A stretch of DNA of 64,000 nucleotides from assembly GCF_003790525.1 (NCBI RefSeq), contig NZ_CP033635.1. One strand, 5' to 3'. Under the pieces are notes generated by a model. That model was not told the origin of the DNA. It made no database searches and was given only the letters and a program-made list of their open reading frames with translations. The position numbers and the translations under genes were made by a program. Source of the DNA: Escherichia coli (lineage in GTDB: Bacteria > Pseudomonadota > Gammaproteobacteria > Enterobacterales > Enterobacteriaceae). Position 1 is the stretch's first letter. The number at the start of each line of letters is the position of its first letter. This document shows, piece by piece, positions 18,003 through 49,916 of this stretch.

Positions 18003-18248
18003 TTAATTTACTAAACATGGTTTGGTCAGCATAGCATCATGTTGTGCGAATAAACACCTGCTATTTTAATATTTGTTACAGTTGCTAAACACGCTGACGC
18101 AGGGCGGCGAGAAAAAGAGAAGTTACTGGCTGGTGGAGGATTAGGTGGTGAAATAAAAAGGCCGTTGGGTTACTCTTCAGGCAGTTAAATGGGCATTTCT
18201 ACACAGATAATGCGATGTTCAGATTCTGTAGACTTATAATGATAGATA

Positions 18249-45437: not shown

Positions 45438-45554
45438 CTTCACTAAACCTTGTTTAGTTAATTGCGTGATTATTCCGCGAAAACATTGCCAGATTGTTCA
45501 ATACACTGCCACAAATCTTTTAATTCAGTATGTCTTGTTAATATTGAGGGCACC

Positions 45555-48500
45555 ATGACTCCAGTAAAAGTGTGGCAAGAGCGCGTTGAGATCCCGACCT
45601 ATGAAACCGGGCCGCAGGATATACATCCCATGTTCCTGGAAAATCGCGTTTATCAGGGATCGTCCGGCGCGGTTTATCCCTACGGCGTGACCGATACGCT
45701 GAGCGAGCAGAAAACCCTGAAATCCTGGCAGGCGGTGTGGCTGGAAAATGACTACATCAAAGTGATGATCCTGCCGGAACTGGGCGGTCGGGTGCATCGC
45801 GCATGGGATAAAGTGAAACAGCGCGATTTTGTCTATCACAATGAAGTCATTAAACCTGCGCTGGTGGGGCTGCTGGGACCGTGGATCTCCGGCGGGATTG
45901 AGTTTAACTGGCCGCAACACCATCGCCCGACCACCTTTATGCCCGTTGATTTCACCCTCGAAGCCCATGACGACGGCGCACAGACGGTGTGGGTCGGCGA
46001 AACGGAGCCGATGCACGGTTTACAGGTGATGACAGGTTTCACCCTGCGTCCTGACCGGGCGGCGCTGGAAATCGCCAGTCGCGTCTATAACGGCAACGCC
46101 ACGCCGCGTCATTTCTTGTGGTGGGCCAACCCGGCAGTGAAAGGGGGTGAAGGGCATCAGAGCGTCTTCCCGCCGGATGTAACGGCGGTGTTTGATCACG
46201 GCAAACGGGCCGTCTCCGCTTTCCCCATCGCCACCGGCACTTACTACAAAGTGGACTACTCCGCCGGAGTGGACATTTCTCGCTATAAAAATGTGCCCGT
46301 TCCAACCTCATATATGGCTGAAAAATCACAGTACGATTTTGTTGGCGCGTGGTGTCACGATGAAGATGGTGGTTTGCTACACGTTGCCAACCACCATATT
46401 GCGCCAGGTAAAAAACAGTGGAGCTGGGGACACAGTGAATTTGGCCAGGCGTGGGATAAGAGCCTGACTGACAATAACGGCCCGTATATCGAACTGATGA
46501 CCGGTATTTTTGCCGATAACCAGCCTGATTTTACCTGGCTTGATGCTTACGAGGAGAAGCGTTTCGAGCAGTATTTCCTGCCTTATCATTCTCTGGGCAT
46601 GGTGCAAAATGCCTCCCGCGATGCGGTGATAAAACTCCAGCGTAGTGAGCGGGGGATTGAGTGGGGGCTGTATGCCATCTCTCCGTTGAACGGATACCGC
46701 CTGGCGATCCGCGAAATCGGCAAATGCAACGCGTTGCTCGATGATGCCGTGGCCCTGACACCAGCGACCGCCATCCAGGGCGTGTTGCACGGTATCAATC
46801 CTGACAGACTGACCATTGAGCTCTCCGATGCCGACGGCAATATTGTACTGAGTTATCATGAACATCAGCCGCAAGCGTTGCCGTTGCCGGACGTCGCCAA
46901 AGCGCCACTGTCAGCACAAGACATTACCAGTACAGATGAAGCCTGGTTTATCGGTCAGCATCTGGAGCAATATCATCACGCCAGCCGTTCACCGTTCGAT
47001 TACTACCTGCGCGGCGTGGCGCTGGATCCGCTGGATTATCGCTGTAACCTGGCGCTGGCGATGCTGGAATATAACCGCGCCGATTTCCCGCAAGCGGTGG
47101 CGTATGCCACTCAGGCGCTGAAACGCGCACATGCGCTGAACAAAAATCCGCAGTGCGGACAGGCCAGTTTGATTCGCGCCAGTGCTTACGAACGTCAGGG
47201 ACAATATCAACAAGCCGAAGAGGATTTCTGGCGGGCGGTCTGGAGCGGCAATAGTAAAGCAGGTGGCTATTATGGTCTGGCACGACTGGCGGCGCGTAAT
47301 GGTCACTTCGATGCTGGTCTGGATTTTTGCCAACAAAGTCTTCGCGCCTGCCCAACCAATCAGGAAGTGCTTTGCCTGCATAATCTGCTGCTGGTGTTAA
47401 GTGGTCGTCAGGACAACGCGCGTTTGCAGCGCGAGAAACTGCTGCGCGATTATCCGCTGAACGCCACTCTGTGGTGGCTGAACTGGTTCGATGGTCGTAG
47501 CGAATCAGCCCTCGCGCAGTGGCGCGGTCTGTGTCAGGGACGCGACGTTAACGCCCTGATGACCGCCGGGCAACTGATTAACTGGGGAATGCCTACCCTG
47601 GCGGCAGAGATGCTGAACGCACTGGACTGCCAGCGCACGCTGCCGCTTTATCTGCAGGCGAGTTTATTGCCGAAAGCCGAACGCGGCGAACTGGTCGCAA
47701 AAGCCATTGATGTCTTCCCGCAGTTTGTCCGTTTCCCGAATACGCTGGAAGAAGTGGCGGCGCTGGAGAGTATTGAAGAGTGCTGGTTTGCCCGTCATTT
47801 ATTGGCCTGCTTCTACTACAACAAGCGTAGCTACGGCAAAGCCATTGCCTTATGGCAACGTTGCGTAGAGATGTCGCCGGAGTTTGCCGACGGCTGGCGC
47901 GGGTTAGCGATCCATGCGTGGAATAAGCAACACGATTATGAGCTGGCCGCGCGTTATCTTGATAATGCTTATCAGCTTGCGCCGCAGGATGCACGTCTGC
48001 TTTTCGAACGGGATTTGCTGGATAAGTTAAGTGGAGCCACACCGGAGAAACGACTGGCGCGTCTGGAAAATAATCTGGAAATTGCGCTGAAACGCGACGA
48101 CATGACCGCAGAACTGCTCAATTTGTGGCATCTCACGGGTCAGGCAGACAAAGCGGCGGACATTCTCGCCACGCGCAAATTCCACCCGTGGGAAGGCGGG
48201 GAAGGGAAGATCACCAGTCAGTTTATCCTCAACCAGTTATTACGCGCCTGGCAGCATCTTGATGCCAGAGAGCCGCAGCAGGCCAGCGAACTGCTTCATG
48301 CCGCGCTGCATTATCCGGAGAATTTAAGCGAAGGCCGTTTACCGGGGCAAACTGATAACGACATCTGGTTCTGGCAGGCGATATGCGCCAACGCGCAGGG
48401 AGATGAAACTGAAGCGATGCGTTGTTTACGTCTGGCGGCGACTGGCGATCGCACCATTAACATTCACAGTTATTACAACGATCAGCCGGTTGATTATCTC

Positions 48501-48836
48501 TTCTGGCAAGGAATGGCGCTGCGACTGCTGGGCGAACAACAAATCGCACAGCAACTGTTTAGTGAAATGAAACAGTGGGCGCAAGAGATGGCGAAAACCA
48601 GTATTGAGGCGGATTTCTTTGCTGTTTCACAACCTGACCTGTTGTCGCTGTATGGCGATTTACAACAGCAGCATAAAGAAAAATGCCTGATGGTGGCGAT
48701 GCTGGCGTCCGCGGGACTCGGGGAGGTTGCGCACTATGAATCTGCTCGCGCTGAATTGACGGCGATTAATCCGGCCTGGCCGAAAGCGGCATTATTCACC
48801 ACTGTGATGCCTTTTATTTTTAACTACGTTCACTAA
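45555..48836 (+). CDS. yphG: large uncharacterised protein, N-terminal DUF5107-type domain plus C-terminal TPR-like repeats
   Basis: 1093 aa from MTPVKVWQERVEIPTYETGPQD... (ATG at 45555 preceded by GAGGG); C-terminal half shows repeated helical TPR-like motifs; no signal peptide. ORF-track ORF extends 31 codons further upstream. Confidence 0.85.
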   Translation: MTPVKVWQERVEIPTYETGPQDIHPMFLENRVYQGSSGAVYPYGVTDTLSEQKTLKSWQAVWLENDYIKVMILPELGGRVHRAWDKVKQRDFVYHNEVIKPALVGLLGPWISGGIEFNWPQHHRPTTFMPVDFTLEAHDDGAQTVWVGETEPMHGLQVMTGFTLRPDRAALEIASRVYNGNATPRHFLWWANPAVKGGEGHQSVFPPDVTAVFDHGKRAVSAFPIATGTYYKVDYSAGVDISRYKNVPVPTSYMAEKSQYDFVGAWCHDEDGGLLHVANHHIAPGKKQWSWGHSEFGQAWDKSLTDNNGPYIELMTGIFADNQPDFTWLDAYEEKRFEQYFLPYHSLGMVQNASRDAVIKLQRSERGIEWGLYAISPLNGYRLAIREIGKCNALLDDAVALTPATAIQGVLHGINPDRLTIELSDADGNIVLSYHEHQPQALPLPDVAKAPLSAQDITSTDEAWFIGQHLEQYHHASRSPFDYYLRGVALDPLDYRCNLALAMLEYNRADFPQAVAYATQALKRAHALNKNPQCGQASLIRASAYERQGQYQQAEEDFWRAVWSGNSKAGGYYGLARLAARNGHFDAGLDFCQQSLRACPTNQEVLCLHNLLLVLSGRQDNARLQREKLLRDYPLNATLWWLNWFDGRSESALAQWRGLCQGRDVNALMTAGQLINWGMPTLAAEMLNALDCQRTLPLYLQASLLPKAERGELVAKAIDVFPQFVRFPNTLEEVAALESIEECWFARHLLACFYYNKRSYGKAIALWQRCVEMSPEFADGWRGLAIHAWNKQHDYELAARYLDNAYQLAPQDARLLFERDLLDKLSGATPEKRLARLENNLEIALKRDDMTAELLNLWHLTGQADKAADILATRKFHPWEGGEGKITSQFILNQLLRAWQHLDAREPQQASELLHAALHYPENLSEGRLPGQTDNDIWFWQAICANAQGDETEAMRCLRLAATGDRTINIHSYYNDQPVDYLFWQGMALRLLGEQQIAQQLFSEMKQWAQEMAKTSIEADFFAVSQPDLLSLYGDLQQQHKEKCLMVAMLASAGLGEVAHYESARAELTAINPAWPKAALFTTVMPFIFNYVH

Positions 48837-48932
48837 ACCCTATTAACTGTAATATTTGAGCGGCACGCGCTGCCGCTCACGCTCAAATAATTAAAATAAG
48901 CCGTTGTAAATAAAAACCCTACAGGAGGCACT

Positions 48933-49916
48933 ATGCCTAAAAAAATGAGAACAACCCGTAATCTATTATTAATGGCTACGCTATTAGGTAGCGCACTATT
49001 TGCCAGGGCTGCGGATAAAGAAATGACCATTGGCGCAATATACCTTGATACCCAGGGATATTACGCTGGCGTGCGTCAGGGTGTTCAGGATGCGGCAAAA
49101 GATTCTTCAGTACAGGTACAGTTAATTGAAACTAACGCCCAGGGTGATATTTCGAAAGAAAGTACCTTTGTTGATACCCTCGTGGCGCGTAATGTCGATG
49201 CCATTATTTTATCGGCAGTGTCTGAAAATGGCAGTAGCCGTACCGTTCGTCGCGCCAGTGAAGCGGGTATTCCGGTGATTTGCTACAACACCTGTATTAA
49301 TCAAAAAGGCGTCGATAAATATGTCTCGGCGTATCTGGTCGGCGATCCGCTGGAATTTGGTAAAAAACTGGGTAATGCTGCCGCCGATTATTTTATTGCC
49401 AACAAAATTGACCAGCCGAAAATTGCCGTCATCAATTGCGAAGCCTTTGAAGTTTGTGTGCAGCGACGTAAAGGGTTTGAAGAAGTATTAAAAGCCCGCG
49501 TTCCCGGCGCGCAAATTGTCGCTAATCAGGAAGGGACTGTTTTAGATAAAGCGATTTCCGTTGGTGAAAAACTAATTATCTCCAGGCCGGATCTCAACGC
49601 CATTATGGGTGAATCGGGCGGAGCGACACTCGGCGCGGTAAAAGCGGTACGTAATCAAAATCAGGCCGGAAAAATTGCTGTTTTCGGTTCGGATATGACC
49701 ACTGAAATTGCTCAGGAGCTGGAAAACAATCAGGTGCTGAAAGCGGTAGTGGATATTTCCGGCAAGAAAATGGGCAATGCTGTTTTCGCGCAAACATTGA
49801 AGGTTATCAATAAACAAGCCGACGGTGAAAAAGTGATTCAGGTGCCTATCGATCTCTATACCAAAACGGAAGACGGTAAACAGTGGCTGGCAACGCACGT
49901 TGATGGTCTGCCCTAA
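48933..49916 (+). CDS. yphF: ABC transporter periplasmic sugar-binding protein (uncharacterised)
   Basis: 327-aa ORF with signal peptide (MPKKMRTTRNLLLMATLLGSALFARA); periplasmic-binding-protein type I fold typical of monosaccharide ABC systems. Confidence 0.88.
   Translation: MPKKMRTTRNLLLMATLLGSALFARAADKEMTIGAIYLDTQGYYAGVRQGVQDAAKDSSVQVQLIETNAQGDISKESTFVDTLVARNVDAIILSAVSENGSSRTVRRASEAGIPVICYNTCINQKGVDKYVSAYLVGDPLEFGKKLGNAAADYFIANKIDQPKIAVINCEAFEVCVQRRKGFEEVLKARVPGAQIVANQEGTVLDKAISVGEKLIISRPDLNAIMGESGGATLGAVKAVRNQNQAGKIAVFGSDMTTEIAQELENNQVLKAVVDISGKKMGNAVFAQTLKVINKQADGEKVIQVPIDLYTKTEDGKQWLATHVDGLP

Follow-up and report, generated by a model that had tools for sequence, protein, structure and literature searches.

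What is the use of a stable hairpin placed between two genes of a sugar-transporter operon? The question is raised by a G/C-rich palindrome in the gap between yphG and yphF of Escherichia coli, which lies in the stretch of 64,000 nucleotides analysed here (the window; its segment 48700-49000 has 100% identity with E. coli strain SC516). In this window the yphG-yphF gap measures 96 nt, and yphE and further genes of the cluster come after yphF (Table 1). An earlier note on this DNA had described the element as an 8-bp G/C stem that is not a canonical terminator, and had proposed that it could stabilise the upstream mRNA, attenuate read-through or modulate yphF translation, with an alternative outer stem as a possible complication. 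The hairpin is real, stable and conserved, and it is probably functional. In our best reading it acts neither as an intrinsic terminator nor on translation, and of the three proposed functions the stabilisation of the upstream mRNA is, at a guess, the best supported.

Table 1. Features of the yph locus discussed in the text (positions are those of the window).
Feature	Position	Strand	Description
O1 palindrome	45439..45461	.	TTCACTAAAC-ctt-GTTTAGTTAA, adjacent to the yphH start codon, between the divergent yphH and yphG; candidate YphH operator
-10-like hexamer TACACT	45502..45507	+	43 nt past O1; putative yphG promoter
yphG	45555..48836	+	DUF5107 protein, 1093 aa; RefSeq annotation of matching genomes; stop codon 48834-48836
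O2 palindrome	48832..48848	.	ACTAAAC-cct-ATTAACT; overlaps the yphG stop codon; degenerate copy of O1
Allele-specific outer stem	48853..48889	+	TATTTGAGCG (48853-48862) with CGCTCAAATA (48880-48889)
Core stem-loop	48857..48879	+	UGAGCGGCA (48857-48865), loop CGCGC (48866-48870), UGCCGCUCA (48871-48879)
Clustered 5-nt substitution	48880..48884	+	CGCTC here, TCACT/TCACA in other Escherichia (alignments)
-10-like hexamer TAAAAT	48892..48897	+	43 nt past O2; TAGAAT in K-12; putative yphF promoter
yphF Shine-Dalgarno AGGAGG	48923..48928	+	start codon 48933-48935; unpaired with the hairpin
yphF	48933..49916	+	ABC-transporter periplasmic sugar-binding protein; RefSeq annotation of matching genomes

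The stretch 48853-48888 reads TATTTGAGCGGCACGCGCTGCCGCTCACGCTCAAAT, which is the sequence considered in the earlier note. An inverted-repeat search recovers within it the perfect repeat TGAGCGGCA/TGCCGCTCA, with 9-nt arms at the positions of the core stem-loop and a 5-nt gap. The resulting inner stem has 9 bp, 7 of them G-C, and a 5-nt loop; it corresponds to the 8-bp stem described previously with one U-A pair added, and the presence of a G/C hairpin between the two genes is thus confirmed. The calculated folding energy is -15.1 kcal/mol for the 8-bp form and -15.9 kcal/mol for the 9-bp form, and a 43-nt segment folds with z = -3.27 (2 of 200 shuffles being equally good). Between the yphG stop codon and the stem lie 20 nt; on the other side, 43 nt separate it from the yphF Shine-Dalgarno sequence and 53 nt from the yphF start codon. 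As an RNA, the element is a stem-loop specific to this locus that belongs to the yphG 3' untranslated region and is transcribed whenever RNA polymerase leaves this gene.

How widely is this stem-loop found? With a 43-nt query, 5411 of 5426 complete E. coli genomes gave one location each, the plasmids gave none, and the core hairpin pattern has one match in the 64-kb window. The hairpin is therefore not a REP-like repeat, and membership in a repeat family of the REP/BIME type, with many dispersed copies sharing a consensus, is ruled out by its single-copy nature. The inner hairpin is invariant in eight of the nine E. coli strains sampled, and the ninth, P276M (NZ_CP044293.1), was set aside as an error-prone assembly full of frameshifts. 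The P276M annotation lists frameshifted or fragmentary genes for yphG, yphF and yphB, and the DNA near its hairpin is locally scrambled; the apparent retention of the hairpin beside a deleted yphG is most likely an assembly error and not a real deletion allele.

Beyond E. coli, a scan for YphF with one genome per species returned 57 loci. Enterobacterales loci with enough upstream sequence retain the arrangement yphH <-> yphG-yphF-yphE, and the alpha- and beta-proteobacterial loci carry yphF-yphE without yphG or yphH. Four species have a yphG-yphF spacer of 21-33 nt; in Escherichia and one Enterobacter it measures 90-96 nt, and in the remaining loci 131-193 nt. Every Enterobacteriaceae spacer of at least 90 nt contains GAGCGGC-loop-GCCGCTC ~20 nt past the stop codon, and the hairpin is kept right behind yphG in Escherichia, Enterobacter, Pluralibacter, Phytobacter, Citrobacter, Raoultella, Entomohabitans and other Enterobacteriaceae. 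The GAGCGGC/GCCGCTC core is invariant or nearly so in 16 aligned sequences from at least eight enterobacterial genera, and the hairpin is also present in all ~11 true metagenomic hits, recovered using a scan anchor that excluded the hairpin itself. In the four species with the shortest spacers (21-33 nt), O2, hairpin and hexamer are all absent and the operon is kept. The whole module is therefore dispensable, and yphF must rely on read-through in these species.

The comparison between genera indicates what has been conserved and what has been free to vary. The loops read CGCGC, CTGACC, CTGACCC, GTTCTC, AAGCGC or ATGAGC, and in most sequences 7 nt separate GAGCGGC from GCCGCTC, with 6 nt in UBA3516, Enterobacter R1, Phytobacter, Entomohabitans and L103. 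At its base, the stem closes with U-A in Escherichia, RIT691 and Enterobacter R1 and with C-G in UBA3516 and Entomohabitans, and further pairs are added outside it, their sequence depending on the genus (AUCUG/CAGGU, UCUG/CAGA, AUCUU/GAGAU, UUU/GAA). This variability of loop sequence, loop length and arm gap would point to a hairpin rather than to a site with fixed spacing. In the 16-sequence alignment 80.8% of the cells form a pair, a share that falls to 26-52% once the 3' partner is shifted. Both partners change at four pairs, but 63 of 500 shuffles reach the observed covariation score, so that covariation is suggestive and falls short of significance. The 7-bp core itself hardly varies; its invariance is thus uninformative on pairing and could instead reflect sequence-specific recognition. 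Of five changes confined to one side of the stem, four leave a G.U pair on the + (mRNA) strand, as would suit an RNA made in the operon sense. A metagenome scan for more divergent variants returned mostly repeats of known types, so that the covariation test was not strengthened. Ewingella, Rahnella and a related bin (Yersiniaceae) have no GAGCGGC hairpin sequence; their spacer carries unrelated hairpins ~20 nt further downstream, CACAGCGGGGAT/ATCCCCACTGTG and CACAGCGAG/CTCGCTGTG, whose arms are mutually compensating.

The hairpin has to be considered together with its surroundings, since the yphG-yphF spacer repeats the layout of the yphH-yphG control region, a feature missed by the earlier note. 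In the latter region, O1 is a 23-bp palindrome, TTcACTAAAC-N3-GTTTAGTtAA, with 9 of 10 pairs matching, and its sequence differs from the NagC/Mlc consensus. Its degenerate copy O2 reads ACTAAAG-agt-GTTTACT in Citrobacter and ACTAAAC-gct-GTTTAGT in Ewingella. Allowing at most two mismatches, the O1/O2 motif occurs solely at the two yph intergenic regions in 24 Enterobacterales loci (~210 kb). An nhmmer profile of the O1 region (IGR1) has the O2 region (IGR2) as its sole secondary match, with E values of 1.3e-5 in Rahnella (over ~60 positions), 2.2e-5 in Ewingella, 7.5e-4 to 7e-3 in several Enterobacteriaceae (where the match covers the operator only) and 0.17 in this window (48828-48852).

Which protein may bind these palindromes? 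YphH is the third, uncharacterised ROK repressor of E. coli (PMC4288165), and it is the natural candidate for binding both O1 and O2. Like the operators of the ROK proteins NagC and Mlc, which are 23-bp palindromes (PMC4288165), O1 is a 23-bp palindrome located beside a ROK gene and the motif is present in two copies per locus; differently from them, the O1 and O2 copies are 3.4 kb apart. The motif would represent a YphH operator in two copies, in a poorly known region of the E. coli chromosome. Note also that the window contains a further match with one mismatch at 18004-18026, upstream of a 540-aa open reading frame. We take this frame to be nadB, and what is presumably a NadR box, TGTTTA-N6-TAAACA, is recognised there; the NadR box explains the match, which we regard as a coincidental overlap and not a third yph operator. 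Next to O1, the block ATTGCGTGATTATTGTGCGAAAAC (45462-45485) is almost invariant across genera. On the minus strand it contains AATAAT, a good -10 sequence for yphH that would put O1 in the yphH 5' leader, and on the + strand its centre lies at ~-41.5 of the putative yphG promoter.

The likeness between the two regions extends downstream of the palindromes. A hexamer is found 43 nt past O1 in 21 of 21 loci (TAAACT, TACACT or TAGACT, and CAGACT in two loci), and a TAnnnT hexamer (TAGAAT, TAAAAT, TACACT, TACCCT, TACTTT or TATTTT) lies 42-43 nt past O2 in 14 of 16. Judging from the palindromes, the hexamer spacing and the profile matches, the spacer would be a control region paralogous to that of yphH-yphG and would contain a promoter for yphF, and the transporter genes yphFEDCB are probably under the control of this promoter of their own. 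If the hexamer at 48892-48897 is indeed part of a promoter, transcripts would start near 48904, and the hairpin would be present only in RNA coming from yphG. In Enterobacteriaceae the hairpin occupies ~-46 to -26 of the putative yphF promoter, where the yphH-yphG copy has a CGTGA-containing block.

A scan for consensus sigma-70 promoters gave no + strand match in the yphG-yphF spacer or in the yphH-yphG region. This result is uninformative, since the same scan is also blank in the yphH-yphG region, where promoters must exist; such blanks are expected for weak, factor-dependent sugar promoters. Motifs for sigma-54, sigma-28, sigma-E, boxA/nut, ops and LexA were compared by eye, and none of them fits the spacing or is conserved. 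No start sites for yphG or yphF were found in the two datasets searched (Adams et al., 2021, and SMRT-Cappable-seq), and the literature yielded no paper on the regulation of the yph operon. In a proteomic study, YphF increases, as do MalE, XylF and MglA, when the carbon source is poor, and YphG is not listed (PMC8753852), which weakly suggests that yphF expression is catabolite-sensitive and possibly separate. The prediction that follows from the layout of the spacer is that yphFEDCB may be driven from within it.

Could the palindrome then be read as DNA? Its conserved half-sites, GAGCGGC and GCCGCTC, have the form of a palindromic transcription-factor site, and at ~-46 to -26 it would be either the target of a dimeric protein or a structural part of the yphF promoter, replacing the CGTGA-containing box. 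Consistent with this, in 16 of 16 sequences the two arms are conserved as sequence, beyond pairing; several genera share the loop CTGACC(C), whereas the 8-10 nt past the stem vary freely; the block on the 5' side is conserved equally well, with no break from O2 to the 3' arm. Moreover, the palindrome overlaps the -35 position of the -10-like hexamer, and in non-Escherichia genera TTTGA-N6-TGACC, centred at ~-41.5, resembles a weak CRP site (7 of 10 positions, by hand count). However, the half-sites do not keep a fixed spacing, the distance between the arms shifting by 1 bp in five lineages. Changes in one arm are tolerated, and they are G.U-compatible on the mRNA strand; the outward extensions of the stem are different complementary sequences in each genus, and Yersiniaceae have placed unrelated hairpins in the same spacer. 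We also know of no E. coli factor that recognises GAGCGGC. Such a DNA element appears to us distinctly unlikely. There is, further, a slim chance that the hairpin is an Enterobacteriaceae-specific regulatory insert in the duplicated yph promoter, its arms being read as sequence, either as a DNA site at ~-36 or as a protein-bound RNA hairpin. If so, it would set the ratio between YphG and transporter expression, together with the O1/O2 operators of YphH.

With an RNA stem-loop directly past a stop codon, termination of transcription is an obvious function to consider. The hairpin shares with intrinsic terminators a G/C-rich stem of 8-9 bp, a short loop and this location. It differs from them in Escherichia by the lack of a U-tract on either strand: the 3' tail of the stem in the window, ACGCUCAAAUAAUUAAAAUAA / ACGCUCAA, has one U in its first 8 nt, the K-12 tail past the stem reads AUCACAAA and the minus-strand tail AAAUAUUA. 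On both strands the flanks are U-rich 5' and A-rich 3', which is the reverse of a terminator, and a terminator scan does not call the site on either strand. The earlier statement that this is not a canonical terminator therefore holds, and without a U-tract the hairpin should not efficiently terminate E. coli RNA polymerase.

A weak or degenerate terminator, or else a pause or insulator hairpin, could nevertheless limit read-through from the yphG promoter into the putative yphF promoter. The stem-loop is located directly past the stop codon and just upstream of the -10-like hexamer, terminator-then-promoter being a common layout, and 3-4 U follow the stem in RIT691 (GUUUUCG), Citrobacter (GCCGCUUUUCC and GCUUUCUUC) and Pluralibacter (UGUUUC). 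These U-runs are nonetheless found in fewer than half of the lineages, and none amounts to 5 U in 8 nt; the tail in Escherichia is A-rich with its single U in 8 nt and goes uncalled by the scan, and the flank composition is reversed relative to a terminator on both strands. We consider this explanation unlikely. The attenuation of read-through proposed in the earlier note is, in the same way, weakened by the missing U-tract in Escherichia and by the at most 3-4 U in 8 nt seen in a few other genera.

The alternative outer stem deserves separate attention. It exists in the window as a perfect inverted repeat with 10-nt arms and 17 nt between them (inverted-repeat search), and it shares GAGCG with the inner stem, so the two are mutually exclusive. 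With a small internal hairpin, the outer fold reaches -16.1 kcal/mol, against -15.9 for the inner 9-bp stem. In ensemble calculations for the window allele the inner stem has a probability of 0.34-0.78 and the outer stem of 0.21-0.64, depending on the context, whereas for the K-12 allele the values are 0.98 and 0.02-0.03, respectively. The reason lies in five adjacent nucleotides, as the outer stem requires CGCTC at 48880-48884. This sequence is found in the window and in UPEC957C, and is replaced by TCACA in K-12, LY180, strain 113 and others, by TCACT in E. whittamii and E. coli E69, and by TTGCC in E. albertii. When complete E. coli genomes are assigned by the identity class of the 43-nt query, the window form accounts for ~1579 of them (~29%) and the non-pairing form for ~3829 (~71%). 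Since the outgroups E. whittamii and E. coli E69 carry TCACT, CGCTC is derived. The tandem CGCTCA-CGCTCA (48874-48885) is the product of five adjacent substitutions, TCACT to CGCTC, with unchanged length, and to judge from the alignments the allele looks like one templated clustered mutation perfecting an imperfect palindrome.

No equivalent competing pairing was found in the other genera compared, and the outer stem, being lineage-specific, cannot be a conserved function. The alternative outer stem proposed earlier is real for the window allele, in which it does compete with the inner one, but finds no support as a functional feature, being absent from K-12 and from other species. That the two stems alternate as a conformational switch, controlling read-through or yphF translation, would be suggested by the nearly iso-energetic folds of the window allele. 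Yet the outer stem is confined to a derived allele carried by ~29% of E. coli and is missing from every other species compared, and there is no Rfam family match, no leader peptide and no conserved pairing with the ribosome-binding site. Such a switch seems barely credible, and the comparison of alleles and species already largely refutes this reading. The window and K-12 alleles, which by a 5-nt difference turn one stable hairpin into two competing folds, offer a natural test of the importance of the fold.

The Rfam search of 48000-49800, run at a permissive threshold, gave chance-level matches, the best being the Avashort thermometer with 20.5 bits against a gathering score of 88; the others include a CRISPR-DR family and osmY RNA. 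Modulation of yphF translation, as proposed earlier, finds no support either. With 43 nt between the hairpin and the Shine-Dalgarno sequence, and without conserved pairing from one to the other, control of yphF translation by the hairpin is unlikely; the Shine-Dalgarno sequence stays free in the inner as well as in the outer fold. A leader peptide was also considered. In other genera, an ATG within the block GAGATGTTTAGAAT begins short and variable reading frames; it has no properly spaced Shine-Dalgarno sequence and is absent from Escherichia, which rules this possibility out.

What remains of the functions proposed is protection of the upstream message. We tentatively favour, at somewhat less than an even chance, that the hairpin is a barrier to 3'-to-5' exonucleases that fixes the 3' end of yphG mRNA at the boundary of two co-regulated units. 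The transcript would be cut or ended in the A-rich unstructured spacer downstream (48880-48922), degradation by PNPase or RNase II would halt at the base of the stem, the stem-loop itself being passive, and the yphG message would thereby gain a defined and stabilised 3' end. The 20-nt distance from stop codon to stem suggests that a terminating ribosome would not melt the stem, and the A-rich 3' flank (43% A), with its weak predicted fold, would suit an endonucleolytic cut. Also in favour of a barrier are the stability and conservation of the stem, its changing loop and base, the G.U-type one-sided changes, the unrelated hairpins of Yersiniaceae and the location at a boundary marked by O2 and its hexamer. 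In E. coli, stable stem-loops lacking a U-rich tail at mRNA 3' ends protect against PNPase and RNase II (PMC6061677). Like these stem-loops of Rho-dependent or processed 3' ends (Dar and Sorek, 2018; PMC6061677), the yph hairpin is stable, close to a stop codon and without a U-rich tail; unlike them, it has no 3' end in the two datasets searched and no clear C-rich rut downstream. Moreover, differently from the same examples, yphF begins 53 nt past the stem, which makes it doubtful that Rho could load; the 3' end would have to come from an endonucleolytic cut. These 53 nt contain 43% A, 21% C and 15% G, and the C/G ratio is 1.2-1.3 in 78-nt windows, without clear rut-like composition.

If this exonuclease-barrier reading is correct, the hairpin belongs to a routine and already well known kind, that of ordinary mRNA-end-protecting structures. 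A REP/BIME hairpin stabilising the intercistronic region of malE-malF was reportedly described by Newbury, Higgins and co-workers in 1987. The yph hairpin likewise lies between cistrons of a sugar ABC transporter and could lengthen the life of the upstream segment relative to the downstream one; it differs in being single-copy, in being unrelated to the REP consensus and in preceding the binding-protein gene. Classical differential-stability hairpins of ABC-transporter operons sit after the binding-protein gene, and the location of the yph hairpin before yphF thus counts against a barrier. The covariation short of significance, the lack of a clear end-generating step in the spacer and the loss of the module in four species also speak against it.

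Neither gene has an entry for its 3' end in the 3'-end tables of Adams et al. (2021), where the nearby entries are only antisense to yphH, and neither is listed in the SMRT-Cappable-seq supplements; the yph locus may be unexpressed under the conditions of these studies. This apparent silence in laboratory datasets would also be compatible with a hairpin that has no present function, i.e., a neutral leftover, for example of the duplication of the control region, and the four species that lost the spacer module and kept the operon agree with such a view. It is difficult to reconcile, however, with a 14-nt core that is invariant across genera whose flanking spacer is unalignable, nor with the near-universal retention of the hairpin in E. 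coli genomes, and we leave this possibility a very slim chance.

Several minor features of the locus were also noted. Most non-Escherichia Enterobacteriaceae have a second hairpin, of 5-14 bp, ~10-14 nt past the -10-like hexamer and before the yphF Shine-Dalgarno sequence. Its sequence is quite different in each genus and its 5' arm is lost in Escherichia; it could stabilise the putative yphF transcript from near its 5' end. A terminator-like site, GGCATTATTCACCACTGTGATGCC followed by TTTTATTTTT, occupies 48788-48821 in the last codons of yphG and ends 12 nt before the stop codon; it is probably fortuitous, given that 1.6 sites of this type are expected by chance in the stretch scanned and that only Escherichia has the T-run. 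The yph locus on a contig labelled Chryseobacterium sp. 18061 (CACSKA010000009.1) is of the Enterobacteriaceae type, its proteins being 81-90% identical to those of E. coli; this is probably a contamination or a mislabelled assembly. Finally, ACCCTAC, just 5' of the yphF AGGAGG (within 48913-48928 in the window), is conserved across genera, even where the spacer measures 21-33 nt.
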